From Balanoglossus misakiensis (taxonomy: Eukaryota; Animalia; Hemichordata): a stretch of DNA of 64,000 nucleotides. This document shows, one piece after another, positions 11,350 to 63,635 of the stretch. The stretch covers positions 3,378,902-3,442,901 of the forward strand of contig CM082585.2 of the NCBI GenBank assembly GCA_040954595.2. Reading direction: 5' to 3'. The notes under the pieces were generated by a model. It did no database searches. It was not told where the DNA came from and saw only the letters and a list, made by a program, of their open reading frames with translations. Within the stretch, counting starts at the first letter, position 1. The number at the start of each line of letters is the position of its first letter. A program made the translations under genes and the position numbers.

Positions 11350-16834
<5,485 letters not shown>

Positions 16835-17007
16835 TTTGTTTTCGTTCGTTTGTTTGTTGTCGTTAGTGTTAATGTTGTTCTTGCCTCTCAAGAGGGCGCC
16901 GTCAATGACCTTTGGCTTTTCAGAGACACGGTTGTTGTCAGTCAGCTGAGCTGTAGACGGAAGACGAGTGGACAGCGAAAATTGGAGGAAGTTTGAGCAT
17001 CGAAAAG
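16835..17007. promoter_or_regulatory. Putative bidirectional promoter: COPS6 (-) and a non-coding first exon on + ending at donor AAAG|GTAAGT (17007)
   Basis: CpG-rich, with the YY1-like AAAATGGCGG at the COPS6 start and an ETS-like CGGAAG at ~16958. A consensus plus-strand donor lies ~170 bp from the COPS6 ATG. Confidence 0.55.
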
Positions 17008-17820
17008 GTAAGTTTGACCATTTTAATAGTTTGCGCGATAAATTATATTTGAAAAGGTTTGATCATCAACTTGTATGTTCACACATGGAGATAAACTCGC
17101 TGGTAGGCCTGTATTCATGTACTACCCTCAGTGACCGTTTCGACCCCGACACCTATGGTCACCTCGACCCCCCAGACCTTAGTTACTTCGATCCCTATGA
17201 ATTCATTCGGTAAAGAGCCTGGTACGTCACCAGGTTCGTTTGATCATGGAGGTGGTTTGATGCGCTAATCTTTGCAGAGTATTCCAGGGCTTCGGTGTGA
17301 GGCACTACGCATGCGATGTATAATGATTGACACTCCAAGAAATCGTGAGATCGAGTAGCGAATCACAAATCGCAGCTTTACCGTGAATCGAACGCATTAC
17401 AGGAACACATATTTACCGGCCAAGTGACCGTTATTTTGAGGCAAAGTTGCATATCGTTCGTAAGCCTTGTTACTGATCTATGAAAAATCAGACACAGGAG
17501 GTCAAAGTGACTTGGCTGCAGGGGTCAAGGTGACCACAAAGAGGTGTGAATCACTGGGGTCAAAATGGTCAGAGGTCGAAGTGACCTGTTACTGTCAGCC
17601 CACTTTTGTCTATGGACCCTTGCAGATTTCAGGCTATATGTCTTTGTTTTCTGTTGCCGTTCAAATGCAACTGAACTATTAAAATGGGAGATGGCCGCAG
17701 CTGTCCGTGGGGGTAATCGGCAACCCCCCCCCCCCAAAAAAAAAACGGTACAGCTGCGTTTAATACTAAAGCCAACTTTGGCGTGATGCTCATTATCTAG
17801 AAAGTGAAAAGCACAATCGT

Positions 17821-18195
17821 TATTGAACACCTATTGCCTGGCCATGAGGGCCATAGCGGCCGTTTATTACCCGCCGTAATTATAATATACCTCATGCTAA
17901 TACTGTGCCGTGATTCGCCAGAATCCGTCACGTGATAGGAAAATAGAATCGACTATGAACTGCTAGGGAAATAGCTGAAAAAATATAAACCGGTCAGGTG
18001 ACTGTTAGCATAGGTTTATTATAGAACACCTATAGCCTGGCCTATATTCGGGCCATAGCAGCCGTTTTTACCCCCTCGTGACTGTGAGTTACCAGAATCA
18101 TATGCTATTTCCCTCGGCCGTCTGGTAACTCACAGCCCCTTGGGGGTAATAAATGGTTGCTATGGCACCCATGGCCAGGCAATAGGTGTTTAATA
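17821..18195. mobile_element. MITE with ~45-bp TIRs
   Basis: AACACCTATTGCCTGGCCATG... / ...CATGGCCAGGCAATAGGTGTT, with an internal direct copy of the left TIR at ~18025. Confidence 0.7.
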
Positions 18196-18693
18196 TTAAA
18201 TGGCAACACTACTATCACTAACATACCAATAAAACAGACACAAGTGTTGGGGGTAAAGGTCAACTACCGGTACTTTAATTTTTCATGTTGACCGGCTAAA
18301 TAGCCTGAAAACTGCCAAAACAGGAGATACAGAATGCAGAGGCGAAGCATGTAACACTGAATGCACTTATTAAAATGAAGCTCTTAACAACTTTTTTTTT
18401 TTTTTTAAACAATGGGAGGGAGGGTGGGTAATGTCCGCTGTCAGTCTGGGCAGTAAACCACGAGGTAGCCTCGTCCCAGGACTAACTCCCACATCCTCGA
18501 TCCCAGCTCCATTTAAACTCCAATAAAACAAGTGTTATTGTACACAAAAAGAACGAAACTGGTGGCGTGTGCCACACAATTACTGGTAACTTTAATCATG
18601 GTTACTAGCTCAGGTAACCATGCTTTCATAAACAAAATGTGTGTGGCTATTTATTATTTTTTTTTATCCTTTAGGGCAACACCACCAGAAATA

Positions 18694-21114
18694 ATGAAGA
18701 TTAGTCATCAAAAGAAGTTGCAGACGTTTTGCAGAGTCTGTGGCTACAAAATGAAAAAAATTGAAGAGACGGGGTAGCTTTGTAAAAGTGTGTGACTTCA
18801 GGGAGGAAATTTTAAACGTATTCGACATTGATGTCACACATGACCAGGCAGATATTCACCCACAATACCTATGTGCAACTGATGAAGCTATATTGAGGAA
18901 AAGCAGACTGACAAAAATCAAGTCGAGAAAATACATGGCTGTACAACCACTACTGGCATTCAAACAATGTTCAGGAGCTGAAAACTGCCGTGTTTGTAAC
19001 AACAAAACTAAAAGACCACCAAGAAGGCCACGATTTTTGAAATCTTCAAGTTTGTCCACAGACTCTCTGAACGTAAGTAAAAGTACATTTTGTACATGTA
19101 CACTGTAGGTATAATTTATGTGCATACACAAGGCACTAGTAGTTTTAATTGTTGATTGGTGTGTACGTTGTACATGTCATTCCACTTATATAGTAAATGG
19201 GATTAGATCATAACAGTGGTTCATCTAGACAGGGGGGAGGGGGGGTTCAGCCCTATTGACATGTTGACACCCCCTAGCAATTTTTTCAGGGGGGGGGGGG
19301 GACTAGTGCCCCTTAAAATGGTGTCATTTACATGTATGATGCTGAAGAAGTTACTGTCCCCCACCCCTTGCCAGAGTGCAATCCCCCTTAAACATTCTGG
19401 GCAAGAGGGGGGGGGCATCCCCCCTGCTGATACCATCCTGCATGAAACACTGACGTATCGTTCCTTTTTCCATCCACACCACCTTCTGTCTCTAATTACT
19501 AACAAATCTTTTTTTCCATAATAGCCTGAACAGAAACAGTCTGTGAATGATGTATCACCTGAAGTCACACCTATACCACTTGCAGATGATGGAAATTTTG
19601 AAAGGTGAGTTCATGTAAAAGCTACATGCCACACCAGATAAATCAAACATTTTTTACATCAGGTGTAACTGACAAGTACTGTGGTTATTTATTCTACTTT
19701 CCCTTGTTTCATTTGTAAATACATTTAGTTACCAATAATTGAATTAGTGACATCCCAACATTTGCTAAAATTATATGGCTATTAAATTGATTGTGTGTTT
19801 GACCTATTGGAATTTGGATATGTTTTTTTTTTTCACCTGCAGTCATTTGATTATTGATAACAGAGAGAGACTCAACAATTTGTATTTCACAAAATGAATT
19901 GTACTTGGTGTATGATAGTTGATACTCTGAAACTTGTGAAACATTATAATTGTGTGTCAGTGATGTACATTATGCATTTAAAAATGGTGTGACAAGACTA
20001 CCGGGGTAGATATTTTATTGATTCTGTTGTTATATGAATCCCATGATGTTTTTCTTTGTCATATATACGAGTGGTTTTTGTGGGGCCATGCAATTTCGAG
20101 TCCTAATTTGCAAAAACCTGTCTTGTATCTCAACCTCAAGTAGAAATTGTCCTGACCACAAATAAAGGCAAAACTTGTCCATTGCTTGTTGAATTTTCAG
20201 TGTTAAATAATGTTCATTTTTTACGTTTTCTTTTTTCCAGCTCAGAAGCTGATGTAATAATTGACGATGAAGGATTTGAAGCAGATGGCTTCTATGTTGA
20301 ACACCACGGCAAAATCTATCAGTATGATCCGCGCATCATCAGTGATGAAGATTTCAAGAGTCTTCTTTCTAAACAAGAGAATGAAAGGAGCTTTCAAAGT
20401 CTCATGGATGAATTGGCAGATTTTGGAACACTTCTTTATGGCTGGAACACAACTGTTCGTACTGAGACTATCTACCTGACACAATTGTCATTCGGTGACA
20501 AGTTCCCAGTCATCAGTAAGTCAGTCACAATCAACCCGGATTTGTCAGTCATCATCTATGTACACAACCAGCAGTTATTGCCTGATCATCCAATATTCAA
20601 CAAATGCTCCGTACGATCAAAGCAAGACGTTCTCGGAATGCTCTCAGAATTGGCCAAGTTTAATGTATGCTGCGGTAACTTTGATGATGACTTCCTGGAC
20701 TTTGTACCCGGTGGTGTCGGCCCGTCTCAATCTGGCCCGAAAGCCATTTCAGCAAGTTTCAGAGAGGGCAATTTCCATGCCACTTCAGCTGTTGGTGTGA
20801 AGTATGAAAGCACAATACGCTCTGTTGATTGCCAGCTGCTTGTCAACGGGATCAGATGCCATGCTTGCAGTCAATATAGGGGAACCTTACGACGTATGCG
20901 AAGCAGAAGGACAAAGTCGGCTGTCACGGAGAGAATTGGTCCGCAGTCAAGAGTACCTTACACCGCACTCAGTAAAGATGAACTTTGCCAGAAACTGCGT
21001 AACACCCAAATGGAACTTAAACAATTACAAGTAACAAATGAACGCATTAAGCAACAATTAAGAGAAAGAATCAATGAGGAAGGCGTTGAATTTAACAATT
21101 TGTCTGTGGTATAG
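18694..21114 (+). CDS. Transposon-derived zinc-binding protein: RAG1-N-terminal/Chapa-like domain + CxGN...TIRxxxC...RCxxC module + coiled coil, no catalytic core; 3 coding exons, ~443 aa if one A in an A7 run is removed
   Basis: Acceptor TTTAG| at 18674. Exons 18694-19072, 19525-19604 and 20241-21114 are GT-AG and in phase. Motifs: HQKKLQTFCRVCG...FDIDVTHDQADIHPQYLC...FKQCSGAENCRVC and VCCGNFDDDF...TIRSVDCQLLVNGIRCHACSQYRGTL. There is one frameshift at AAAAAAA 18754-18760. Confidence 0.7.
19214..19452. mobile_element. hAT-like MITE with G/C tracts, in an intron of the RAG1N-like gene
   Basis: CAGTGGTTCAT / ATGAAACACTG inverted ends with subterminal CAGGGGGG / CCCCCCTG. No clear TSD. Confidence 0.5.
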
Positions 21115-23134
21115 ACTGTTTTGGCTGGTCCCCTGCCTTGGTGACAAGCACCAAAGAGACTGGTAATGGCAAACCGCAATATTTAGAATTGTTTAATCTG
21201 ATTGGCTAGTAAAGGAGCGTTCTCATTGGTCACAATTACTTCCGGGCAGGATTCAATCTGTCATGTTTCTTGATATCATTTTTACCCTTCCCGAATATAT
21301 ATACATTTTTTAAAAACAACAGTTTATGATGGAAGTGAAGCTGATATCAATACAACTACTGACACAGATGTACTTAAATTTTACATCAGACATGCGCATC
21401 AACTCACTTCTGGAATGTCAAAAAATTAGCACATTACAAAATGGCTGATGGAGTGTATCTGCATCTATCTACCTGCCTATCTTGTCAAATGAGACGCAGT
21501 GATCAGCGAAATAGGCTGTTAGACTAACGATGTCATTGGAACCTCTAACTTACTCGATGTGCAGTTCTGTTGTCTATGATTGTACTAGTTAAGATCTAAT
21601 AGTTTTAATACAATTACAATTATTTTAATCATTTTAGAATATGCTGTTTCTTTGCATAAAAGCAGTTTCATAAATTTCCATGTAATCAAATAAAATACTG
21701 TCACTGTACCATGCAGGCACCTCCATGCATGCACAATGGAAGAAACTTAAGAATATTGAGAATTGTAAATGTTATCATAATGTTGATGATAAACAGCAAT
21801 GTCCTTACTGGAGTTATTTTATGTATCTCAGGCGACCTTTGACCTATTTTCCCATATCCACAGCAGATGCAGCATCTAAATTTGATGTGGTAGTTTATCT
21901 TTAGAGGTCCAGGCTTCCCATAGAAAACAATAGATTTGGACTGGACCATGGTGGTGAAAGGGTTAAATCCACAAGAGAACACTAGCAATCCTTTTAAAAG
22001 TTCTGCTATATGTGCTACCCATTCATTACCTTTTAGACAAAAAATCATGTATCTTAACCCGATCATTATTCCATCTTATTTGTAGATCTGTCTTTTGCCT
22101 TCAGAATTTTGTTTCCTCAATGCGAGGGTGCAACATTTGAATTCAATAGATCTGATTTCTTGGTTGAATGGCTGCTGATGCAGTGGCCTTCTGCAGGCAT
22201 CCAATAATGCCTACCCTCTTAAAAACCTCAGAGGAACACTTTCACCTATGTATTCTTATGGAAAAGGACTGCTGAAGACTTTGTTTTGACACTGAGGGCA
22301 GTTTTGGCAAGAAATAAAATTTCAATCTCAATCTCTCTTTCTCACTCACTCTCTCACCCTCTAAGAAAATCTTCTACCTTTGCAAACATCTGAGCGTTTC
22401 TAGACATTTCAAATTCTGCAGTACAATGGACCAAATAGAAACACAAAACCAACCAATTGAAATAAAACAATTTAATGCTGAAAAATATATACTGTATAAC
22501 TGTATATAAACTACCTAAAAAATATATATATACTGTAAAATTGTATAACTACTTTTGAACAAAAACAGGTTAAATGTCCCTAAAAGGCAAATGCAAATTT
22601 CAAAACAAATTTCAACACAAACTTCACTAAGTTCGTCTCTACAAAGTTGCATACATGATTTGAAAGGAATGGGAAAGGTTTCTCAGAAGATTTTTGAAAG
22701 AATTTTGCCCAAAAATGGCAAAATTTGCCGAAAAATCCATCCTCCATACATCAGCCCAATCTGAATATACGTTTCTTATATTATAACAATGTCAGAGCAA
22801 TCTAACCAATGATAAAGAGAAAATGATTTTTGACAAAAAATGGGAAGAATTGCCCCAAAAATACAAATATAGAAATTTCAACAAATTTGACTACGGTCAT
22901 CCCAAGCAAGTTACATACAACATTCACAGCAATGGGACAGGTAGTTTCTGAGATGATTTTCGACCAGTCACTCCACTTATCTGATAAACTCAATCTGCGT
23001 TGCGGACAGCTAAAAATCTAGTTAACTTTGTTTCCCCTTTCGACTAGTTCTAGTTCAAAACGTTGGCACCCGGGTTTTTGCATGCAATACACGGCCTGAA
23101 AGTGGCCAAGTCGAGTCCTTCGCCAAGATGTTAC

Positions 23135-26100
23135 TCAAACTTCTCCCGTTTTCTTCATGGTTCTCCACTTGTCCTTCAAGTTCACGTTGGTGCGGTTGTT
23201 GAAATGGAAAGATTTCAAAATCTCACTCCACTTGCCGGTGCCGCACAGTTGCACTCCGCGTTTCAGATTAGCCTTTTCCTGGTCTGACCATGCGCGCCTC
23301 AGACTGCCGGGTGTCCTGATCTTCATTGGAGTGGAACTGGACAAGGGTTGCAGTCGTCGTGATGGTGCTGTCAGAAAAGTCGCAACAACACAAATATAAG
23401 GAAATTGCTACATTTCAAGAAAAACAAATCTCAGTGTTATGTCAATGTTCAAAAGGTTTGATCTTCGTGAGTGCACAAACAGCTACAGATACAGGGGCTT
23501 TAAAAATAGATATATGAATGAATGTACCCTCATACAGAACATGTGGTTTGATCTACTCACGTGTACTGATGTCCGAGTCGGAATCTGACCATGGGACTTT
23601 CTCGTCCTTTATCTTGGGTTTAACTTTAAGGCCATGAATATGAAGTCTGTTTGTATGACACTTTACTTCCCTGAAACGAAAAAAAATTCAACAGAGTGTA
23701 TATCAACAGCCATGATCAGAAGAACATCAAAAGCACATCTAATCAACACCATAATTTCAAAAATCGCGCCAAGGACACAGTGGTCCCATTGAGGGATTAC
23801 ACAAGAAAAAGTCTACACCGGAGTACATGGCCGTATACAGACAGACACACACACACATAGCGAGAGATCAATGGGCAAACACTGACTGACCCATAAGCTG
23901 CCAATGGGATATTTACTGTACATATACTAAATAGAACAGCTGACCTTTTTAAAACTTAGCCAGATATGTAATCATTCAGGAATTTGCTGTGTATATAAAT
24001 ATCACAGGATGGGGTTCCTGCCTATTTTAAACAACTCAATAAAGTAAATACACACCACTTTGTAAAGCAATCTGACCAGTAGTTCTTGAGTTACTGAGTT
24101 TTGACCAAATTCACATTTTTCCAGCTAATTTGCATATTTTTGGCAATGACAACTTCATTTGAACAAACTCCCATCTACAGCCCAGCCTGTGCATCAGCAC
24201 ACCAAATATCAAGGTGATAAATGCAGCAGTTATCAAGTTTTTGATGTGGACGGACATACAGACATCCATACATACATACATACATACACATGCAACCGAT
24301 CCCATAAGGTCCCATGGTATAAACCAATGGGACCTAAAAACTGACTGAGCAACAGCAACTTACAGGAACAAAGTTACTCAGAACAAAATTGTATAGTTTA
24401 CATAATTATTCACATTTAAGGATTCCCAGCAGGGGGAGGACTTTTTGTTGACATTTTCAAACGAAACAAAATTAATTTCTTAAAAAGGGTACTTGCCAGT
24501 CTATTCATAGATTGTTCCCCCATATTTGGTCTCATCAGAATCATCGCATTCACATTATTTACCTGTGAGGAGTTGTGTCTGCACTGGTATCATCCGCACC
24601 ATCTTCCATGGAATTGTTATCTTGCTGCACCAATAACATCCCACTGTTTCCCCCAGTGTCAGTCTCACATGTGCAGATCAACTTCTTTCCTAGAGACACA
24701 CGTCGTCCACCTTCCAAGTCACTCTCCTCCTCATCATCACTGGATTCGGGGTCCCTGCAGCGTTTCTGCCGCTTTGCATTTTCCTTATCCTTCATTGTCA
24801 GAGAAATTAACAAAAATATCGCTATAATAAAATTAAAAAAAATTCCCTACCTTACCCTGCCTACCCTATTTTTGAAAACCATGTAATCAGAACAGCACAC
24901 ATTATTTTGGGAGGCCTAAATAAGTATACACACAAGATTCACCTGTGCTGTCTTCATTTCAGCCAAGACCTGAGGAGCACAACTCTTCACTGGATTCCAC
25001 CCAAGCACATTGCCTCTTTTCACACGGATAATTTCATAGCCGTTCCCGGGCCTGGCGTCATCTACCTGAACATCTTCCCTGTAGAAATATACAAATATGC
25101 ATGGGTTAATTGGTGGTTTTAAAGGTATACGGTCACCTATGGAAAATTAGCTATACATGTAGTTACCATGGAGATCTAGCCAATCACAGATTTTCAGTGG
25201 GTGGCACACGCGAAAAAAAGAGCGCCACCATATGTTTTTTAGAACGCTCAAATACGCCATTTCAGCCATATATGGGCCGTATATAAATTGGAGGTGACCG
25301 TATACCTTTAAGTCATTTCAGTCCGACCAGGTCAGGTCAGATTAATGATAACTGTGTGTACAATGAACAGGTGTAAATACCCATATGAAAGTTTGTGTCC
25401 GCAGTAGACCTCTAGGAAATAAAACGTAACCACACAACTTGCCTTCACTTTTTAACACCCCTACATTTCATCACACAGAAACAAGACTGGAATTTATCTC
25501 TACTGGGGTTCAGAACTGTTTCTTTTAGTCTTTTTTTTTTCCTCACTCTGTTCATTGAATCAATGTTTGTAAAAAATTCATGGGCCCAGTCAATAGTCAG
25601 AAAAAAAATTCAAATGGAAACACGAGATTTCTCAAAAGCAATGTTGACAAAACGAGCACTCATGATGTAAAAAGCATCCAAATGTCTAACACCCATACCT
25701 GTTTCCACAGATTTGTTCCATTTCCCTCTTTATTCCTTCTCTCCAATCAACAACAACATTCATCTCATCACTATCAACCCCGGTCACAGCTTCAGGTCTT
25801 GCAGTAGTAAGAGTCTTCTTCTCAAGCTACAGATACATTTAGGGTTAAAGTCTCTCTCACGTTGTCCTTTTCCCATTAATTACGTTTGATACAAGACACT
25901 GTTTATGTTAATGTATATGTGTATATGTAGTGAATGAACGTTCAACCACACACAGCTTGCATCCCACTTGTATGATTGATATGAGAGTAAACTCGCCCCA
26001 AATGAATAAATAAATGGTAGAGATCGATTATTCATTTTGGCGAGTTTTTTCACTCTCACATCTACAAGTGGGATGGAAGTTGTGTGTGGTCGAACGTTGA

Positions 26101-29100
26101 TTCAATATATATCCACATGAAGAATAACATAAACGGTGTCTTGTATCAAACATAATTAACGGAAAAGGGGCAGCGAGAGAGAGACTTAGTCCCTTTCAGA
26201 AATTAGTTCAAGAAATGTAGACGACTCAATGGCAGAAAAACCAGCCGTAAATGGAGGGAAACAAATCTAGCCAACATAATGTTCAAAAACAGAAATGCTA
26301 TCTCCACCCCCCCCCCCCCCAACTTGTCACCAGATGTACACAGTACAATTCTGTTTTCTATATCAATTCAATAAAAAAATACTTGTTTACAATGGTGAAT
26401 TTTACAATATTCACCCAGTTTCAGTTGTCAGATACTCTAGCACCACACTATCCAAGAATGCAAAGTACTGTGATGTTTATACAATTTTTATAGCCGTACA
26501 TTTTATATGAGCAAACAAAATAAAAGTCATAATGAATAACTGTCTGAAAACATAACATCATAACTTACATCTTGTAGCCATGCCTTCTTGAATTTTTGCT
26601 GAACTTTTTCCAAGATTTTAACCATGGCCTTGTGAAATCTCGCATATGAGTTGTCTTTGATGAACTTCTGCTTTTGAGCACCAGTTTTGTCTCTCAGAAT
26701 CTCAGCTATCTCTTCTTTCACTTTCTATATGGGGAAAAATGTAAAATTATCTTCAAGTAAGAACGTAAGTAGAGTGAGTGCAGAAAATTGACATTTGCAT
26801 TCGAACACCCTTACATTTTTAAACTACATTAATTTTTAGAAAAAAAAGTTGAGACAGTACAGTTGATCATCTTGTTATATTATTTTTTATAAAACCATAT
26901 TAATTTTGGGAAAAAAGATGAAACAGTACAGTTGTAGGATGCTTGTTTATTTGCATATCTATAATACATGTCCATCTCAGTTTGTTAATTTGAATTCCTA
27001 TTATACATTTCAGAAAATAAACAGCTATCTGTGCTCACCTGTTCCACTGCTGAAAGATTTTCCTTATCCCATAATCTGTGAAATACATCTCGTGCTTTAG
27101 CGTGATTACCAGCCTGAATGCACACGACCACTGCCTAGAGATAAGGACAAAAGATGATAAGTTCTTTAATGATGGGGGTCAATAATTTCACTAAAACAAC
27201 TCACTGTAGTAAGCTGTGAAATTGGTGATATTTACTTGAGATCTGTATCATTTTTGTCAATGTGACCGCGTGCATTGCTGCATGCAACCTTTTTGCAAGC
27301 TCAGCAATTGATAATGAAATTACCATTAACCACTACATTTAAACTTAGGGACAAAGTCTCTCTCTCTCTCTTTCTCTGCCCCTTTTCCATATATTAAGTT
27401 TGATACAAGACAACATGCATGTTAATGTACATGTGGATATATAGTGAATAAATGTTCAACAACACAACTTCTATCCGACTTGTAGACACGAAACTGAAAA
27501 AACTCGCCAAAATGAATGATTGTTCTCTACCATTTATTCATTTTGGGCGAGTTTTTACTTCCATATCATAAAGCGGGGTGGAAGTTAGGTGTGGTTGAAC
27601 GTTCATGCACTACATATAATTATAGTATACACATGTAAAATGACATAAAGGATGTCTCGTATCAACATAATTAATGGAAAATGGGCAGCGAAAGAGAGGC
27701 TTTGTCCCTTTAACCCTATTGCTACCGGGGGTCATATCTGGTTAGAGTGTCAAGTCCCTTAAAATACGTATTTGCCTCTTTTTCTTCTGAAACGTATTTT
27801 GACTGTCTTGACATGGCTCTCATACGTACTTAAACAGTCAGGACGTAAGTGGGGTAATTAAACAGCAGGGGATCATGCAATGCAAACACTTGAACTGGCC
27901 AGTAACGTTTGAATTGCTCATTTGCATACAGTTTTTCAACTTTTTTCACAACGAAAGTTAAGCAACTTGCAACCCATTTCTGACAATTATTTCACCCCAG
28001 GCACATTACTGGTACTATGAGTGTACTACATGTGATTTTTCATGAAGTTTTATCCAGAAGAATTTCTTAACTTCCACTGACAAAATTGTGATCACGAAAT
28101 TCAAAGTGACCTTGAAGTTAAAAAATAAAAAAAAAAATATCAGCCATACCCACACAAAAATTAACCCCCTCAGGTTTTAGAAACATTATTAAACTCCTCT
28201 ATTCATAATTTTGACATGAATATATCCATGCCGAGAGTCAAGGACCACAATTTACAGTGCCATAGGTCAGTCCTGAGAAGTCAGTCAGCGTGAATAGTGT
28301 ATAGACTCCATATGTAATATGCTAATGAGAGTTAACGATGCGTTGAAAAGGAAGCCATTACGTCATGGGTTAACATGCGTTGACCCATTTCAATGCATAC
28401 ACATATGGCAAACACGGCTGTACTCGTCGATGGCGAAGGCAATTTTTACACCGTCATTACTCCACAACGGAGCGGCTCACACTATTATAATTTCACGGTA
28501 ACTTAGTTCAATATCTTCCTAACCTACCCAATTTTTTTCAAGACAAGAAATCTTTGCTGAGAGTCAAGGACCACAATTTAAACCAACATACCGAAACTGT
28601 CTTTCTCGGGAACGCGTCTTTAAAACTTCACGAAAAATCATCCTATCATTGACTATGGTGTTTCATACACGTCTTAGAAAAATGGGTGCACTACGATCAC
28701 TTGTAGTACCGAAAATCTCCGTTTGAAAATTTTTCGAACTGGCCGTAACTGCCACTCAGCGACGTTCACATTCAAATAGATCTCTTTGATCTCACCGCCG
28801 TAATTACCCCACTTACGTCCTGACTGTAGACACACTTGGCAGTCTGAGCCCCCTGAAAAATGTACCAAATCGTACTGGTTTGTACTGTATTGGTCTGAGG
28901 GTCATGTACATGTATATGATGTATAGGCCCTACTGATTAACACACACTTGGCAGTCTAACAGGCCTGGGAGCCCGGATTCTAGGCACCCTGGAAATCAAA
29001 CCAGTTCATACTGACTTGGCAGCGTTAGGGTTAAACCAGCAGAGGAGAGCTATGGATACTGGTGGGGATGTTGGGGCACGTATATGTGTTGCCAAAAATA

Positions 29101-31977
29101 AACAACTACATGTACCGGTACCTGTTTACATATCAGTAGTCTTGCTATCTGTACATCCCAGTCACTCAAGCAAACTGTTCTCCAAGTTACCATGTTTTCG
29201 AATATGCCCAAAGCTGTTTCCAGTGGGGTTCCTTCTGCTGAGCCCATATACTTGGTATCCGGATCACAGCCACCCATCAATAAGGACAACAGATGCAGGA
29301 ATGCTTTCATTTTGAATTCTTCCTCCTTGACTGCATGGATTACACATGTAAACAAAGTAATGCAAAACTGTAGGATAACATCATTTTTTGACCAGATACA
29401 AAGAAAAGGTTTGAAAGGACAGAAGCTTCAACTTTAGAATTAGAAAGATTGTTCCCACATCTCATACTGGTTTGGAAAGTCAGCAAATACTATATGTTAA
29501 TTTAGATTGTGTGTATATTTGAAGTACTGGGGTAGGTCATAAGGTCACAAGACAAGGTCATGATACAGTGAAATTTTGGACTCAGATACTGCATCGAGAG
29601 TTCAAAATTCGATATAATTTTTGCCAACTACACCAAAATAAACAAATGGTATAACACCTTTCTACTGAAAGTAAAATTTGGTGTTGTTTGGATGTTTGAT
29701 CACTCATCCAGACAATCGAGGCGGGCCTTGTGCATTGAAGTTTATGCCCATGTCGTCTGATGCATGATTTCCACAACGTTACCAAACACACAGAATATCG
29801 CCGAGCTCGGTTTTATTCTAGTAGATGAAAGTACCATTAATTTCACCGAGCTCTTTCTCTAATATGCTTACAAAGACCTCTGCTACCATGTTCTTCTGTA
29901 GAAAAATACTCTAGAACAGTAAAACCTATCTAAACTGAATACCAAGGGGACTGAAGAAATTGTTCGGTTTGCTGAGGTGTGCAGTTAATAAGGTCAAGAG
30001 TAAAATGTTTTTATTTACATATGCAAATTTATTTAGGTAACTGGTATGTTTATTGTTTATGTATGGTAACATAAAATAAACAAAATGACTTCAAAATCTG
30101 AAGATGTATGCTGCAAACAGTTCTACAAGTAAAGTTTGCTAGCAATCTGACAATTTATTTAATTTTTACAGCCTTAAAAAAATTGTCATGACATTTTAAA
30201 CCCAAAAATGCCCATTTTTTAAGGTGGCATACCAATCACATCAATAAAACTGTTGGCTTCTATGTAGATAGAAATTCATATGGTGTTTGAAGACTTTTTT
30301 CAAACAGACAGATAAATAAAACATAATCATGCTTATCTTCTGAGAAGATCTTGGGGAGAGTACTGACTTAGCACGGGGTGTGTCTCATGAATGGGCTGCT
30401 TTATACCAACAATTATCTTGTGATGATCGGTAAACGTACGCTGCGGTCAACCACAGCCGCCACTTTTTTGACCCTACACAAACTGTCAAGAGCTATTGGA
30501 ACCGAGCGAAGAATAAGCTTAGAGAATGAAAGGTGTGACCAAGAAAATGATGCCTAGTTATCTTGACGAATTTATGTGGCGAGAGCATTACAGAAACACA
30601 CCGCAGTCACGAACATCATCTTCGCGCACATTGCTGAACAGTATGATCCTGCACTAAAAAACACGAGAAAAATAGGGTCTTTCACGGCCAAAATAAAAAA
30701 CAATAAGTTTGTTAATAAAATAAATTGTTTTGTTCCAAAATAAATTCAAGTTGTTTTCCTTTATAAATGTCTACGAATTTATGTGGCGAGAGCATTACAG
30801 AAACACACCGCAGTCACGAACATCATCTTCGCGCACATTGCTGAACAGTATGATCCTGCACTAAAAAACACGAGAAAAATAGGGTCTTTCACGGCCAAAA
30901 TAAAAAACAATAAGTTTGTTAATAAAATAAATTGTTTTGTTCCAAAATAAATTCAAGTTGTTTTCCTTTATAAATGTCTACGACCATTCAGGTGGTAACT
31001 CGCCACTCTCACCCTCCCGAAAAGGCCATCCCGACCAGAGAATGGTAGAGTCCAAGATGCGCCAACACTACATGTGGGAGTAAACAATATACAAATGTAC
31101 ACATGCTGCACTCCCGCCATTTCCAACTGAAAATGTTCTCGTCACAGCAAAAAGTAAACAAATTTAAATCGTCATAACTTCGTTTATATGCCCCGGAAAG
31201 TATACAAACTTCACAGGAAAAGGGGCCAATGTCTATACTTTATAAATATTACATCGGATTTCAAAAAGAACTTGGTGTAACAGTCCGTTCAAGAATTTAG
31301 CGAGGCATGTTTCCAAAACGCGAATTTTCATTACTCTGCACTTTAGGTTATTTCTCTGAAACTATAGCATTAATCTTATCAAAAATACTCCCGAAGATAT
31401 GGTTCGATATATGTACATTTAAGTAAACCCTATAAAACTACTCAGAACGCTCGCTGTTGGTAGCGGGTTAATAACCAAATTTGGGGGAAACTTTCGGGGC
31501 TCAGTGTAAAGACCTCGTTTTTCGAATCAGATTCCTCGTTTGCATAATTATGTAAATGAGGGCGTTACTGGCAGAGATTTCATCTGAATTCTGATCTAGG
31601 AACTTTATAGAACACCAGGCATCCGCCAATCATAAATACATTTTACACTCACTGAATCAGAGACCGTATTAGGCTACGGATGATGTCACATTCAAACAAT
31701 CATGACGAAGAGTGCAGTTCGAATTCATTCATTCATTCACCGTACCGTCCTGTGAAAGATGAATTTGTGGAGAGTCTAGAGGGGCCGGGGTTGGGCGTCA
31801 ATTGTGTGGGATTTATTTTATCTTACCATCGGAAAGATCCTGTCCATTTTTTCGTTCGACCGTATAGTGTTTCTTGAACTCCTCCCAGTATTCTTCTGTT
31901 GCTACAGCAAGATGCCATCGATGGTAACGTCCTGTCACTTTCTCGGCGGAGAGAAGAACACCGTCTATATGCGCCAT
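23135..31977 (-). CDS. TERF: Telomeric repeat-binding factor (TRF1/TRF2 family): TRFH dimerisation domain plus C-terminal telobox Myb, ~489 aa
   Basis: Exons 31827-31977, 29872-29895 (candidate micro-exon), 29122-29330, 27039-27134, 26569-26724, 25699-25826, 24943-25078, 24563-24789, 23561-23670 and 23135-23367 sum in frame. TRFH-like TPLETALGIFE...LLICKQ|AVVVCIQAGNHAKARDVFHRLW. Telobox RRAWSDQEKANLKRGVQLCGTGKWSEIL...NRTNVNLKDKWRTMKK. TERF1 versus TERF2 cannot be distinguished. Confidence 0.88.
24050..24340 (+). repeat. Interspersed repeat with (CATA)n microsatellite and 3' hairpin, Helentron/DINE-like (related copies ~37620-37860, ~51190-51310)
   Basis: Shared core AATTTGCATATT..TTGGCAATG..CTTCATTTGAACAAA..CCCAGCCTG..CACCAAATATCAAGGTG, followed by the microsatellite, the hairpin AGGTCCCAT..ATGGGACCT and an A-run. 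Confidence 0.45.
25123..25307. mobile_element. Kolobok-type MITE
   Basis: TTAA + AGGTATACGGTCACCT ... AGGTGACCGTATACCT + TTAA (perfect 16-bp TIR). Confidence 0.8.
25841..26194. mobile_element. Kolobok-type MITE family AGGGACAAAGTCTCTCTC (copies or fragments also at 13033, 27347-27709, ~39570-39754, 46880-47152, ~62720)
   Basis: ~55-bp TIRs. A TTAA flank is preserved at 13029, 27710, 39755 and 46876. The internal sequence is shared across copies. Confidence 0.75.
27714..29030. mobile_element. piggyBac-type non-autonomous element carrying a nested Tc1/pogo-type insertion
   Basis: TTAA-CCCTATTGCTACC ... GGCAGCGTTAGGG-TTAA. An uninterrupted paralog lies at 59285-59587 and a right-end fragment at ~12585-12690. 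Confidence 0.8.
27835..28826. mobile_element. Tc1/mariner/pogo-type non-autonomous element (~990 bp)
   Basis: Perfect 26-bp TIR CAGTCAGGACGTAAGTGGGGTAATTA. It is inserted at the TACTTA|GACAC site that is empty in the paralog at ~59395-59405. Confidence 0.85.
30375..30660 (+). pseudogene. Merlin (ISXO2/IS1595-like) transposase C-terminal remnant in TERF intron 1
   Basis: Translates, with frameshifts, to SHEWAALY...YAAVNHSRHFFDP-TQTVKSYWNRAKNKL-RMKGVTKKMMPSYLDEFMWREHY...IFAHIAEQY. This matches the Merlin motifs SDxWxxY, VNHSxxFVDP and YLDEFMWR. Confidence 0.8.
30566..30983. repeat. Near-perfect two-copy tandem duplication, period 206 bp
   Basis: ACGAATTTATGTGGCGAGAGC...TAAATGTCTACGA begins at 30566 and again at 30772. 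Confidence 0.9.
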
Positions 31978-32503
31978 TTTGTACCAGAATACCTTCGTTT
32001 TCAGATTCGAGCTCGGATTCGGATTCTTGAGACAGACCAAGACTCTTTGAATATAACAATACTACAATAACCTCCTCCACTTGCGCGAGTGCATTTTGTA
32101 GATCTTTATAGATTTTTCGAAATTTTAGGCTGGGCCTGCATTTATTACAAAGTAAACATTTCCAAGACCTCAAATCGGCTGTCATTGTTCTTGATCTATC
32201 GCAGCATAATAACCGAACAGCGCCCTCTGGTGAGTTAAGAGAAAACAAAATGTACATGCAATGTATTTATTTATTTACACTTTTAAAGAGCGTCCAATTT
32301 ACCCATTGAGCAAAATTCATCGTGGCCCGTACAATACATTGGGGGAAAAATAAATAAAAGGTGACTCGAAAACACGAGTCAATTACAGTGTTGCATCAAT
32401 AATCAGACCTAAATTAGAACTGTAATCTACTTCAGATATTTGCCAATCTGAAATGTTGACAGATAAAGAATCCCCACTCCTATGTGTTATTTTGAACTTC
32501 TAG

Positions 32504-33747
32504 GTTGCAGCAAGATTAAAAGAGAAGAATTCTCCATGATTTCTGTCCACTGTGTTGCCTATAGGTTGGCTTTCGCTGCTTCACAGGCTGTGAATTGGGT
32601 ACCATATTTGAATGAGTGCAACATTACACCAACTCCGCTGGTATTATCAAAATTCAGCAGTAAGAATGGCTGGTCTTACAGAAATTCAGGTAAATATTTT
32701 TATGCATTGTATTATTTGGACTGGTTTTATGTCGTATACATTTGTGTTGTGGATACATGTGTATCAATACAGGCAAATGTCTGAACACATAAAGTTGATC
32801 CATACTTATATTGTACTAGTATTGAATTGTCATTATAAACAATTATTTATCATTGAGAACAAATATTTCCACATCTTTTTGTATTTACAGAAAAATCTTT
32901 GGTGAAAAAGGCACACGATTGAAAGAGGCAAAATCTGTGAGATGGCCGTCTCACCACGGAGCTGAAGAGCCACATGATGCCACTGCAGTTGGTCTGTCTA
33001 TATTTGTCAAGCAGTTCAACTTCATTGCCAGCCTGCACATGTTGAGCGATGAATGTGTTGCCACATTTGTCCAGGTTATCTCTGCTGTTTCAGATCAGTC
33101 TGTTGCATTTCCCACACATGTATGAAGACCAATCCTGTTACATGTACACACTACTTGTGTATTCCTGGCTACTAACTATTTTTGCAATGTGTTCTTCCTT
33201 TAATACATAATTCTCCTTTTTTACAGAAACAAGACAGTGATCTAACAATCTTAGAGAGTGTTGTCACTTCGACCACAGTAGCCACCAGGAAGCTGAAACA
33301 GCATCAAAGACAACATATGAGCCATTTGATGACATACATCACTGAGACGTTAAGACAATTCGAAATCAAGGTCACCCAGGAAATGAAGGACAAATTTATG
33401 TCACAGGTATGCATATGGAAATTGCAGTAGTGGTGCATTTATAATTTAAGGCTTTGAAAAAAATCTGTATTTTTTTATAATTTCAAAGCAAGATAATTGA
33501 TAGCAATTTAATCATCATGCAAATAATGCTTTAGTTATGATAATAATGACTTTCAATAATTCATGTCAAGAGAAACTTGAGGTTGGTATCAAGAGTAAAA
33601 TATAGAGTAAAATGATGAATTAACAAAGTGAAATATGTATTTGTATTTGCTCATTCCACCTGTATTTATATCAGACTTTGATTGAACACTTCAAGATGGA
33701 TGAGGAAATTGCTGTCTGTGAATTCCTGCTGCTGAAGATATCCATGC
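32504..33747 (+). pseudogene. Decayed intron-containing hAT transposase (ZNF862-like) fragment
   Basis: Exon-like pieces: VAARLKEK..MISVHCVAYRLAFAASQA..YYQNSAVRMAGLTEIQ|GT; AG|KIFGEKGTRLKEAKSVRWPSH..DATAVGL..FIASLHMLSD; AG|KQDSDL..; AG|TLIEHFKMDEEIAVCEFLLLK. The hAT motifs HCxAHRL and RWxS are present, with several frameshifts. Confidence 0.75.
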
Positions 33748-33774
33748 AGTCCACTTACAGAATCTGGAGCCGAT

Positions 33775-33869
33775 GACGTTGGAAATCTACAAAAAGACAC
33801 TCTGGGGTCTCTGGAACAAGTTTTATAGTGGTTGGTCTTGCAACCAACTGCTTCACACGTTTTCGGCAT
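33775..33869 (-). pseudogene. Truncated THAP zinc-finger N-terminus
   Basis: MPKTCEAVGCKTNHYKTCSRDPRVSFCRFP matches the THAP start M-x3-C-x4-C...SFxRFP. The conserved W and C-x2-HF are absent where the sequence runs into the opposite-strand hAT fragment. Confidence 0.65.
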
Positions 33870-33937
33870 TGTTTTCAACACAAATATGTGCCATATGTAA
33901 CAAAAATTGCAGTGACCAGGCTGATGCGACCATGTAG

Positions 33938-34918
33938 CTACCACAGATCACATACTTTTCTCTTCAAAGTCGTCTTCTCTCCTCGCAGGGTTCTTGTCGT
34001 CTGTTCTGGTGCAGATCTGCTCAATGTGTCATCATTTCTGATGCCGTTGTAGTCTTCTGAATGAGCAGAGGAAGATGCCTTTCCAGTCTCCCTCTTCGTC
34101 AATGTAGTCAAGGTGTTACGGTAAATGGAACAAACAGCACACCGTGATGAACTGTCTGAAGAAAAAAGGAGTTGACATTTAACGTGTCTGATAGTCTTGT
34201 AGTATGGCCCATCTTCTTCATGTGCAATTACCTCTTTGCGTTTGTTAAGAAATACACAGTTTTGGTGTGGTGATCTCAGACGACACAAATCGTTGAAGCC
34301 ATCATTTCCAGGGCACAGGACTGTGGTCTCCAACAATTTGAAGAGATGACAGCATGACTCTGCATCAATTCTTTCAGGAATAGCAGTAAACACTGGAGAG
34401 GCATTTGCTCTACTTCCATACACTTCCACAGTCCAGATCCCAGACTCTTGCACTTCGATTCGGATAGGCACTTTCCTGAATTGACTACACATCTGCCAAC
34501 AGCAAATACTCCTGTTTGTGTGTTCGCCAGAAACCTCACACATGTAACCATATTCTTCGGCCTTGCTGGCGATCACTGATATCAGTGTTGGTGCTTGGTC
34601 ACGTCTGACTTCAGCACTGGTACACAAACTGCAACTGTTTGTGTGCTCCACAAATGAGGGAGGGTTTATGTTAATGGGATGCTCCTTCAATTTATTGCGA
34701 CGAAACTTCTCTTTCCACCGGTTTAATTTTAATGAACACGGCATGCATATGAAAGGTGGGAATATATCCCCATCTTCAACAAGGACATCTATATTCAATG
34801 CTCTCTTTATCGTGACAGAATGGACTTCTTTCTTTATAGGTAAGTTGTTCCGTTTTATTGCTTTTTCCTTACCGCACAATCGACACTGACACCTAAGGTT
34901 AGCTTTGTGATTTTCCAT
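33938..34918 (-). CDS. Second RAG1-N-terminal/Chapa-like + CPGN...TIRHxxC...RCxxC protein (326-aa ORF)
   Basis: MENHKANLRCQCRLCG...LNIDVLVEDGDIFPPFICMPC...FVEHTNSCSLC, then LCPGNDGF...TIRHVKCQLL...RCAVCSIYRNTL. A strong acceptor TTTTCCACAG| lies 3 nt before the ATG. The frame is uninterrupted. Confidence 0.75.
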   Translation of the reverse strand: MENHKANLRCQCRLCGKEKAIKRNNLPIKKEVHSVTIKRALNIDVLVEDGDIFPPFICMPCSLKLNRWKEKFRRNKLKEHPININPPSFVEHTNSCSLCTSAEVRRDQAPTLISVIASKAEEYGYMCEVSGEHTNRSICCWQMCSQFRKVPIRIEVQESGIWTVEVYGSRANASPVFTAIPERIDAESCCHLFKLLETTVLCPGNDGFNDLCRLRSPHQNCVFLNKRKEVIAHEEDGPYYKTIRHVKCQLLFSSDSSSRCAVCSIYRNTLTTLTKRETGKASSSAHSEDYNGIRNDDTLSRSAPEQTTRTLRGEKTTLKRKVCDLW

Positions 34919-34980: not shown

Positions 34981-35388
34981 GGATGTACGAGCATAATGTA
35001 CACTGGTAAACAGCGCATGTGTGTCTCTTTCCCATAGGATTACATTCATTGATAATTGCTAGAAATAAGTCATTTTCAAGAAATTTTGCACATAGCTCAG
35101 TCGAGTAAAAATCATTGGTCAAATAAAATCTTTGTGGTTACCGTGCTCTATTTTGAGATAAATTTCGTTAAATATTTTACCCATACACAAACCACTGGTG
35201 AAAATGCTGAGTCAGCAATTTTCTTCTATTATCGACGAAATTCGTGGCTCTGTATTTCAAAAACAAGCATGGTTACCCCTATAAACATTTTATTACTGAT
35301 TTTCATCATACATACAAATGAGAATCCAAAAATTCGCAATTACTAGAAATGACAACACTTTCTGTTCAATTTTACTGAATGTACATCC
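34981..35388. mobile_element. Kolobok-type non-autonomous element (related inverted fragment ~36990-37210)
   Basis: TTAA-GGATGTAC ... GTACATCC-TAAA. The internal sequence matches the reverse complement of ~36995-37160. Confidence 0.6.
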
Positions 35389-35466
35389 TAAAACTCTGAG
35401 ACATTCGGTGCAGGAGTTTTGTCATGATATCTAATTTATTCTATTGTGGCGGTAGGGTTTCCTTAA

Positions 35467-36452
35467 GGTAGCTGGAAAGGCTATTTTTGAAGCAAATTCT
35501 CTCAATGTTTGTGAATTTATTTTCACAAGTTGGAATAAAGATAATGACTTGAAATTTGCAGCATGTATTCTTAACAAACTAAAAAGTGAGGGAAAAATAT
35601 GACTGTAAAAATATCTGCTAAAATTATGAAATTTGATACGCCTAAATATAAATATTCATAATTTTACAAAATATTGATTGAATCTTGACATGTTTTCACA
35701 AATTATTGAATAATTTGTATTCATTTTAATATGAAGCAACCCCTCCAGCAATGTATGGGACACTTTCAGCAAAAACTTATTTTTTTCAAAGTTATCACTC
35801 AGGAAAACACAGTTTTTGTTGATATTTTGTATACAACTTTAACATGCTGCCAAAACACAACGGGAAAACTTATGAAAAAACTGTCCCGTAAAATTGTTCT
35901 TTGGGATGTCCCGAGTCTTTCCTGAAAGTTTCATGATAAAAAAAATATCTGGCATACCAATTCAATCACAAATAAAAACCATTACATTATGGCGAAGGGC
36001 AGAAAAGTAGCGAAATACGCAAAGTTTAGCGGCAGTTCACGGCGAAGGATCGCATTTATCTGGGTCAAACTCCTTTCCGCTGGCCTTTGGGGTTCCCAAG
36101 AAGTGTAAAAATGTCCATAATTTGGCAGCCTTTAATAAACAAGCAAGGTTATCTATCGCTGAAAATTGCAAGAATCAGTGTTTGCAAGTTACATTTAAAT
36201 GCCCTTGGCTAGGGGAACCCGTCCTTGTGCGCATAGCCTAGGAGAAGTCTTCCCCAAGAGGGCGCTCAAATAAGTCTCCCTAGCTTCCTTGCCAGATGTA
36301 TGAAATTAGGTATCATAAAACCAGCCATATCTTGTTACACGTTTATTGCCCCGAATTTTTCATAAGTTTAATTTTTCTCTAATACATTTCTAGATATAAA
36401 TTCAGTGTTTTTAAATGAAATTTTAACTGACGCCCTAGCCTTTCCAACTACC
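35467..36452. mobile_element. Kolobok-type non-autonomous element (~990 bp)
   Basis: TTAA + GGTAGCTGGAAAGGCTA ... TAGCCTTTCCAACTACC + TTAA (17-bp TIR with one mismatch). Confidence 0.8.
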
Positions 36453-38535
36453 TTAATACAAAAATGTACAAACAAACGGCCGATTTCGAACTCCAAACGT
36501 GCGTCAAAAATGGGCAATCAGGTACATTTGAGCTCAAATTGATAGCGACTGGAGTAATCGAGGCCAGTGACGAAGATCGACGCACGTTTTGAGTTCGAAA
36601 TCGGCCGTTTGTTTGTATTAAGGAAATCCCTACCGCATCAAATCTGTTGAATTTCACCAGGTTTGTCTATGTAGCTTTGCAGGGCTGAGGTTTGGGGACA
36701 TAGCAGAGCTACAATCCATCCCACGCGAAAATAATACTTGCAATGGTAAGGAACTTATTGATTGTTGGGGGTGTTTGGGAAACACTCGGCATATTCACTT
36801 CAAAATCCTACTTTTTGGTTGTACGAAAAGAAAAACAAACGCCACAAACCTTCCAAGACGTCCGCAAGACACGTTTCCGGTAGTACAGTGGTGACGCGTA
36901 AAGTGGACCCCCTAGGTACGTGTAAATAAAAGTCACTGTGCATATCTGGTACCCTCGTCCGCGCGCATAGTGTACAATAAGTAAAGGTGAAAGTATTGTC
37001 ATTTCTTTTAATTGTGAAGGTTTGTTTTCTCATTTGTATGTATAATGAAACTCCGTAATGAAATATAGGGTCCCCGCGCTTGTTTCTCGAAATACAAGGC
37101 CGCCAATTTAGTCGATAAATGAAGAAAACTGCTGAGTCAGCATTTTCCACCAATGGTTTGTCTTTGGGCCAATTATTTAGAAAGGTCCCACACTGAGTGG
37201 CGCGTACTTTCAACAACTGACATGACAGAGAACACGACAGCGAAAGCCAAGGAACAGAATAGCCAGAACTATCACAAGTGCCTAACTAAATGTCTGATTT
37301 TAATCAGATTGATTCCAGGCAAACCATGGGAATCCACTGATTACATTTTACAAAATCTTACTTGGGTTACCTCAAGGAATACACCTAATAAATTTCAAAG
37401 CAACCTGACAAGTGATTTCTAAAAGGGAACAATATTTGCCTTATTTTGCGATAATTTGAACAAAATCAAGTTAGATCACCTACAGGAAGCGGCAAACAAA
37501 ATTTAGTTTCAGAGATTTTTTTTAAATGAGGAAAAAGACAAACAATGCAAATAGAAAATTCATTCTGTATAAAGCTCATAACATACAAGCCTGTATGAGG
37601 TCAACATAAGAAGCATGCACACAGCAATTTTCAGAACAATTTGCCAAGTAGTTGTTGAGATTCGTAGTTCTGGCCAATTTCACATTTTCCTGCTCATTTG
37701 CATATTCTTGGCAATGGCATCTTCATTTGAACAAATTCTGATCCACAGCCCAGCCTGCCACCGATACACCAAATATCAAGGTGGACAGAGACAGACAGAC
37801 ACACACAAACACAGATACACACATACATACATACTGTGCCATACCATAAGGTCACATTGGAAAATACACCAAGAACAAATCTCATTAATTATGCAAATTT
37901 GCAATTTATTGACTTGAAACTGTGCATAAATTCACGTGAAAACAATACTTTTTTGTTCAGTTTCAGGAAGTTTGATACAAAAACTTAAGGCTAATTGCAC
38001 AGATTTCTTTACTATGCAAATTAGCCATTAATTAATATTACAGAAAAGTCTTATAGCATGGACAGATCTTTGTTGGATCAGTAATTGTACCATGATTCAT
38101 AACATTACATACAACAATAAAAGAGATATATCACTAATTAGAAAAGGTCATTCAGTATGCAAATTTGCACTTTATCTGACCATAAAGTGCAAAGTGCCCC
38201 TAAGCTTGTGAAAACAATATCTCTGGTAAGTTTCATCAACTTTTAAGTGCTTGAACTCTGCCGTTATAGGGCTACCTGCAAAAATTAATTTAATTCGAAG
38301 AATTATCAAGATGACAATGACCCATTTATATCAGATCTAATGTGCAAGACACACACACCAAAATGTACTCAATTCTAACCATTTGTAACCTGACAGACAG
38401 ACATCAGTTCAACAAAAGTATCTAAGGAATAATTACAGAGAGAAGAAAACATCCTAAAACCTGTCATTTAAATCTGTCAACCAATTGTGCCACTATGGCA
38501 ATAGAAGGTGAATTTATTTTGGTTGTAGTATTTAA

Positions 38536-38974: not shown

Positions 38975-63635
<24,661 letters not shown>

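Follow-up and report, generated by a model that had tools for sequence, protein, structure and literature searches.

We examined a 64,000-nucleotide stretch of the hemichordate Balanoglossus misakiensis (GenBank assembly GCA_040954595.2, contig CM082585.2, forward-strand positions 3,378,902 to 3,442,901), referred to here as the window, for two genes that join a zinc-binding head of the RAG1 N-terminal type to a module shared with P-element-like transposases. Gene A lies on the forward strand (18694–21114) and gene B on the reverse strand (34918–33938). Each begins with a zinc domain of the NZD/Chapa type, continues with a middle module and stops after a coiled coil. The original prediction had described two shared motifs and no obvious DNA similarity between the genes; both motifs are present at these positions in A and B, and blastn showed no likeness between their DNA (best E 0.57). 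At the protein level (blastp), they match at 47% over 43 residues (E 2e-6) and 31% over 58 residues (E 4e-5). Across the window, family profiles run against six-frame open reading frames (ORFs) of at least 20 residues matched only A and B at E<1e-3, with the next best match at E 0.59. No transposase core was found in the window beyond the coiled coils, either by tblastn with 150 and 145 relatives or with a core profile (best E 0.74). Judged from their sequences, A and B are fragments of P superfamily members and not transposases. We consider it probable that they represent the front parts, without the core, of P-superfamily transposases, most likely relics in decay, and that they come from a THAP-less, NZD-headed branch whose full-length members are likely still mobile in some invertebrates.

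Gene A is split into three coding exons, whose boundaries are GT-AG and whose phases agree. Exon 1 (18694–19072) encodes the double zinc finger of the NZD/Chapa type (approximately 18706–19003) and a basic linker, with evidence from Pfam, profiles and splice sites. Exon 2 (19525–19604) encodes an acidic linker, fits by its splice phases and aligns with the start of P0187, a Ptychodera flava protein (XP_070545584.1) with a complete core. Exon 3 (20241–21114) holds a linker, the middle module (approximately 20464–20919), the coiled coil and the stop codon, which sits just short of the position where full-length relatives have a helix-turn-helix (HTH) domain. This last exon is 62% identical to residues 23–306 of P0187, which was the sole match when it was searched for longer proteins, and the exon 2–3 join is backed by a colinear P0187 match (61% over 307 residues). 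A splice acceptor lies 19 nt 5′ of the ATG.

Two defects of gene A had been missed by the original prediction. The frame from the ATG at 18694 stops after 27 codons, owing to one surplus base in a run of seven A (18754–18760). The run is one base shorter in the contig of run X1, and the surplus base is present in the contig of run X2 from the same sample; as these contigs disagree, a segregating allele is the simplest explanation of the break. The second defect is an Asp codon (18881–18883) at the fourth ligand of the first zinc finger (ZFa), where Cys is expected: among 117 aligned NZD domains gene A alone has Asp here, and 115 have Cys. With the His position of the second finger (ZFb) also occupied by Cys, gene A lacks the full set of eight ligands, and by these residues its NZD is a degenerate homologue. 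The exon 1 haplotypes differ at 13 positions, nine replacement and four synonymous, so there is no synonymous excess (p 0.30; the numbers are small). Given the frameshift allele, the lost ligand and the absence of a synonymous excess, gene A looks to be decaying. The suggestion that the window genes are domesticated functional proteins is not supported, given the segregating frameshift of gene A and its predominance of replacement differences.

Gene B is a single ORF of 326 residues, with a splice acceptor 3 nt 5′ of its ATG. Its NZD/Chapa type I domain (residues 1–101; 34616–34918) is identified by Pfam, ligand table and fold match, and has the complete set of ligands in the type I scheme (H4, C12, C15, C58, C61, H92, C96 and C99). 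An alpha/beta domain with an RWD-like arrangement follows (residues 109–199; 34322–34594; predicted local distance difference test score (pLDDT) 91 in the AlphaFold model), and then a four-cysteine module (residues 200–285; 34064–34321; C202, C248, C260 and C263) with a predicted zinc site, seen in the alignment and the model (pLDDT 91.5). The coiled coil (33938–34015; helix 302–325) is approximately 20 residues shorter than in relatives and runs to the stop at profile position 318. The pLDDT of the whole model is 91.4.

The first domain proved to be of the RAG1 N-terminal/Chapa type, as had been proposed; N-RAG-TP elements also carry domains of this type. Exon 1 of gene A scores 24.9 bits against Pfam RAG1_imp_bd (cut-off 23.3), and family profiles built without gene A score it at 58.2 bits for the NZD and 88.7 bits for the middle module. 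The gene B head matches zf-AD (E 1.1e-4) and RAG1_imp_bd (E 1.4e-3), both below cut-off. A profile of 20 full-length family members matches the NZD structure of mouse RAG1 (21WB) at E 4.4e-9, with the eight ligand positions aligned, and another family profile matches it at E 6.2e-12 with His, CxxC, CxxC, His and CxxC in register. In fold searches, residues 10–78 of the gene B model aligned with ZAD structures at Z 5.3–6.6 (best Z 6.6, root mean square deviation (rmsd) 2.2, 64 residues aligned), and a ZAD–NZD relationship is likewise described in the available text of bioRxiv 10.64898/2026.01.24.700457. The structure 21WB was absent from all fold-search lists, and the structure library may not include it; neither model had a Foldseek match at E≤0.001. 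A word-based homologue search with gene B gave no matches, and a single-sequence search of the PDB gave 0. The top ESM Atlas clusters for gene B hold RAG1_imp_bd in 11–12% of their members (score 0.91–0.92, low recognition), which is a lead only. An NZD-only tree was poorly resolved, with 8 of 114 branches starred and no named RAG1L or Chapaev sequences among its rows.

The middle module consists of two parts, an RWD-like alpha/beta domain and a four-Cys module, and the coiled coil comes next. Residues 109–199 of gene B gave a best fold match of Z 8.0 (rmsd 2.5, 80 residues aligned) to an arrangement that is common and not specific. The four positions of the four-Cys module are Cys in 103, 102, 100 and 98 of 106 aligned relatives; its best fold match among 48,161 chains was Z 3.3, which is not proof of a new fold. 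A search of the ESM Atlas returned nothing for the middle module of gene A. A single NZD-type core query returned 334 proteins, and 81 of the best 120 listed carry the middle module, which bears out the link with P-type cores that had been proposed. The module also appears, weakly, in THAP-bearing relatives, and thus marks a wider P subgroup.

Full-length relatives show which core the two modules precede. A search with gene B among 1.84 billion representatives gave 170 matches; both modules are present in 83 of the 150 listed, and 23 of these 83 reach the first catalytic Asp. The full-length order is NZD, RWD-like domain, four-Cys module, coiled coil, HTH, and a P-type RNase H core split by a GTP-binding insert. 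In a Pfam scan of 50 homologues, the long ones matched the P-type HTH, RNase H and GTP-binding-insert models (PF21787/21788/21789). Three of them (P0017, P0018 and P0034) combine the TNP-like RNaseH_N, GBD and RNaseH_C models with NZD/zf-AD matches and have no THAP; the sole THAP match among the 50 is a core-less toadfish protein, and none of the 50 matched a RAG1 core or RING model. The profile of 20 full-length members matches the Drosophila P transposase (6P5A) at E 4.3e-42, and all four catalytic-region motifs are kept in 24 of 29 NZD-bearing cores. Proteins with both NZD and core occur in crinoids, sea urchins, sea stars, sea cucumbers, a brittle star, lancelets, Hydractinia and Clytia. 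Public annotations already hold PF12560 with PF21787 on the same proteins. Scans of viral contigs for relatives found none.

To place these cores, we built a tree of 109 rows (a quick IQ-TREE run, LG+G4), after 13 of 122 candidates were dropped for having no RWHP anchor or fewer than 380 residues after it. All 29 NZD rows fall in one clade of 46 (SH-aLRT 99), the other 17 being N-terminally incomplete, and no THAP row lies inside it. The lineage that had been predicted, pairing a RAG1-type N-terminus with a P-type core, is thereby seen in full-length relatives that form one clade. Joined by a sister group lacking both zinc heads, the NZD clade makes up a THAP-less clade (support 100). Eight THAP rows lie outside this and are not monophyletic; P0232, labelled as having another N-terminus, sits among them and looks like a decayed THAP. 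THAP and NZD did not occur together before a core among the 120 listed proteins or at 80 metagenome loci (8 with NZD, 17 with THAP), and none of the 28 NZD-bearing proteins among the 120, nor any of the 8 NZD loci, had THAP at the N-terminus. We infer that the NZD was gained once, on a core already without THAP, and that THAP is ancestral, as judged from Drosophila P and THAP9 in the available text of PMC7776569; the core tree itself is unrooted. Several points weigh against our reading of A and B as relics of this branch. The core set comprises the best 120 of 334 matches to one NZD-type query, and the trees were made by a quick method with neither Drosophila P nor THAP9 as outgroup. In single-sequence searches against 21WB, exon 1 of gene A (E 0.52) and the gene B head (E 0.79) match only weakly, so the link to the RAG1 NZD rests on the profile. 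Further points on this side are given below with the alternatives that they favour.

Other N-terminal arrangements were seen among the homologues. The toadfish protein P0057 (XP_034017367.1, Thalassophryne amazonica) has 522 residues that comprise a THAP domain, an NZD, the middle module and a coiled coil, with no core, and by its middle module it belongs with lancelet NZD-P proteins (support 95); horizontal transfer or a THAP–NZD fusion is possible. The lancelet protein P0023 (XP_066279151.1; 1290 residues) is also core-less; it carries the NZD three times, along with a long Ser/Pro repeat and the middle module. In Glandiceps, the P0015 gene model (XP_077991809.1) joins a middle module of the gene B subclade to a methyltransferase-like domain, which may be an artefact. 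A third N-terminal type, basic or of low complexity and neither THAP nor NZD, is common in molluscs and acorn worms.

On a middle-module tree of 95 rows, gene B lies inside the NZD clade, where it belongs to an acorn-worm subclade together with proteins of Saccoglossus, Glandiceps and Ptychodera (support 98). Gene A pairs with P0187 (support 99) outside the NZD clade. Gene A thus joins an NZD exon to a sister-branch middle module, which suggests that it is an NZD element that branched off early or else a chimera. The same placement favours an alternative that we regard as rather unlikely, namely that gene A is not one gene and that its NZD exon lies by chance 452 bp upstream of a non-NZD P-element fragment; gene B would be unaffected. 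P0187 is the nearest full-length relative of gene A, its gene model lacks an NZD and begins inside the span of exon 2, and the exon 1–2 join is supported by phase alone, which would agree by chance in one case out of three. Set against this, the two parts share a strand, stand in the right order and have a canonical splice donor and acceptor between them, and head and middle module alike belong to the same wider P group. Moreover, constraining P0187 into the NZD clade was not rejected (p-AU 0.185), which is compatible with monophyly and does not itself show that placement.

The host gene between A and B has a Myb-domain exon (23135–23407, reverse strand; Myb domain 23138–23407, Pfam Myb_DNA-binding E 2e-10), which fits TERF, and is presumably that gene by a telobox motif. 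We rejected the idea that A and B form the two arms of a single element, on account of their different sub-lineages, the absence of DNA likeness and this host gene between them. Since they belong to different sub-lineages, there is no support for any significance of the facing arrangement across TERF, to which the original prediction had drawn attention.

Outside the window, near-identical dispersed copies indicate recent movement. Hydractinia has nine named loci, with one identical 889-residue protein on six contigs and 99.6–100% identity among the 7 members compared; XP_057290356.1 and XP_057290355.1 are among its copies. Pairs of NZD-P proteins on different contigs are 98.6% identical in Patiria and 99.8% in lancelet, and in Antedon one sequence is found under two accessions on two contigs. 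By these copies, full-length NZD-P members are likely still mobile in some invertebrates. P superfamily elements make target-site duplications (TSDs) of 7–8 bp. We scanned 80 metagenome loci for terminal inverted repeats (TIRs), 34 of them de novo, all 80 with a TIR profile, and 6 of the 8 NZD loci with a permissive scan. A P-type element with no THAP or NZD detected (L067:7173-11669) has a 40-bp TIR and an exact 7-bp TSD, the THAP-type locus L037 has a 42-bp TIR and an exact 7-bp TSD, and three sister loci (L070, L041 and L066) have TIRs and no TSD. The TIRs of the sister elements end in CA.

No TIR or TSD was found at the 8 NZD loci, several of whose contigs end near the gene, and four of these loci have stop-free matches, three sharing intron positions. 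The NZD-P family has an intron just 5′ of the ATG, which pushes the 5′ end of an element further out. These loci would also fit a branch that is mostly an old domesticated gene family of marine invertebrates, comparable to THAP9, with A and B as its pseudogenes, which we consider very unlikely. Such a family would account for the missing TIRs and TSDs and the shared introns, and for one-per-species groups on long stems: P0164, P0167 and P0176 in three sea urchins (approximately 65% identity) and P0166 and P0290 in two sea cucumbers (64%), which are candidates for domesticated NZD-P genes. Against it stand the near-identical copies, which occupy many contigs in Hydractinia and two in each of Patiria, lancelet and Antedon, the retention of the catalytic motifs (24/29), and the several divergent sublineages within one species, as with the four Diadema proteins on the core tree.

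The position at which A and B end bears on another alternative. Small P elements frequently code for repressors, the 207-residue KP protein among them (PMC7776569, available text). It seems unlikely, though not negligibly so, that A and B, and B above all, have been kept as KP-like repressors or domesticated proteins that would dimerise with or outcompete the full-length transposase. Like KP-type repressors, A and B have an N-terminal head and a coiled coil without a core. Both stop at the coiled coil (at profile positions 336 and 318 between them, 318 being gene B), and both keep the splice acceptor that the family has immediately 5′ of the ATG. Of the 75 homologues that begin at the NZD and pass position 200, 14 end within 25 positions after the coiled coil, compared with 24 in the next 275 (p 1e-6); the 14 include RefSeq models from Glandiceps (342 residues) and Saccoglossus (337 residues). 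Gene B is intact, with a frame open over 326 codons and all 12 ligands kept, which decay alone would not predict. Unlike KP-type repressors, however, A and B have no THAP, and no TIR or TSD was found around either. Gene A segregates a frameshift and has no synonymous excess, and the coiled coil of gene B is shortened. P0277 (Patiria, 314 residues) ends at the same place, yet is 99.7% identical to a full-length copy and has its remainder annotated as the next locus, so ends of this kind can arise by simple breaks. Many of the short homologues are gene calls, which may terminate at an intron or at the end of a contig. At both genes the read depth is at background level, which is not a measure of copy number.

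If A and B are decaying relics of the NZD-headed branch, as we prefer, they would be independent insertions, each of which later lost its core. A full-length NZD-P protein would cut and paste like the P transposase, and its element would probably have TIRs ending in CA and a 7-bp duplication, like the sister elements. A sister element that lacks both THAP and NZD nonetheless has clean TIRs and a TSD, so the ends are likely recognised by the HTH and middle module. We lean slightly towards the NZD being an accessory head that binds DNA, chromatin or protein; that it is a strict substitute for THAP is conceivable, if somewhat improbable.

Compared with the P superfamily (Drosophila P 6P5A and THAP9; PF12017 and PF21787–PF21789), the full-length relatives share the coiled coil, the HTH, the split RNase H core with its GTP-binding insert and the DDE-type motifs. 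The sister elements share CA-ended TIRs, with a 7-bp TSD as opposed to the 8 bp of Drosophila and zebrafish P (PMC7776569). The full-length relatives differ in having the NZD and no THAP at the N-terminus, and in the RWD-like and four-Cys middle module, which lies outside the six P domains in the available text of that paper; genes A and B differ further in having no core. The family domain resembles the RAG1 NZD in its eight-ligand pattern, with a C4 ZFa and a His/His/Cys/Cys ZFb, and is shorter than that of mouse at the vertebrate H2 insert, as published accounts, so far as accessible, describe for invertebrate RAG1L. Unlike in RAG1, where RING and a Transib-type core come next, it leads into the middle module and a P core, and there is no RAG2L partner. 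Chapaev shares the N-terminal type I Chapa domain and its ligand scheme (PMC4411706 and bioRxiv 10.64898/2026.01.24.700457, in their available text), whereas the long relatives have a P-type and not a CMC/Chapaev core, with no RING after the domain. The gene B model also aligns with the ZAD/zf-AD domains of M1BP (7PO9), Grauzone (1PZW) and Pita (7POK), with Pfam zf-AD below cut-off; these have one zinc site, whereas gene B and most relatives also carry the ligands of a second.

Published accounts, so far as their text was available, confine the Chapa domain to RAG1(L) and Chapaev. In the literature searched, as far as accessible (including PMC7204232, PMC10462144, PMC10824691, PMC13228809, bioRxiv 2026.09.03.748810 and bioRxiv 2026.08.31.747927; Repbase, Dfam and most subscription journals lay outside the search), we found no report of an NZD/Chapa domain on a P core. 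The pairing of NZD and P-type core marks a real lineage, one apparently not yet described in the searchable literature. Supplementary Table 1 of bioRxiv 10.64898/2026.01.24.700457, which according to the available text has sporadic matches such as a lancelet protein, could include NZD-P members. As a third carrier of the NZD, on an unrelated P-type core and ranging from hydroids to lancelets, the family marks the NZD as a swappable transposase head, and the RAG1 NZD module has likely moved between unrelated transposon families. The available text of PMC1131882 moots a 'separate, unknown transposon' as the source of the RAG1 N-terminus, for which the NZD-P branch is a candidate. According to the accessible part of bioRxiv 10.64898/2026.01.24.700457, the function of the NZD is unknown in RAG1 too, and the NZD-P family offers apparently recently mobile elements for studying it. 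A bolder scenario, to which we give little credence, is that an ancient and still active P branch in cnidarians, molluscs and invertebrate deuterostomes swapped THAP for the NZD and supplied RAG1L and Chapaev with their N-terminal zinc domain, or traded it, and that its truncated copies act as KP-like repressors; if true, an active Hydractinia element would be the first system for probing the role of the NZD in transposition. The window genes A and B are pointers only, and probably dead.

Two further candidates in the window were rejected. A P0187 match at 24853–25065 (E 8e-5) is unseen by the middle-module profile and overlaps sequence of repeat depth. A THAP-like ORF at approximately 33869–33780 (reverse strand), 70 bp past the gene B stop, starts with MPxxCxxxGC, a THAP-like motif; it has no Pfam match and a profile E of 2.9, and was not counted.

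Inverted-repeat elements resembling miniature inverted-repeat transposable elements lie upstream of gene B (35169–37179) and of gene A (17820–18200) and are unrelated to the P-type TIR profile. Frameshifted pieces at 32467–33125 (forward strand) have no Pfam match, and presumably resemble a ZNF862-type hAT transposase by their motifs. An MPN/JAB host gene (12704–16990, reverse strand; MitMem_reg E 3e-19), which we take to be COPS6, stands head-to-head with gene A approximately 1.7 kb away. A CID/RS-domain host gene (38975–57806, reverse strand; CID E 0.023), presumably U2SURP, ends approximately 4 kb upstream of gene B on the same strand. Within an intron of a reverse-strand gene, a piggyBac-like transposase (54224–56924, forward strand) is spread over three frames, with DDE_Tnp_1_7 matches at E 8e-11 to 2e-19 and a weak zf-Tnp_2 match.

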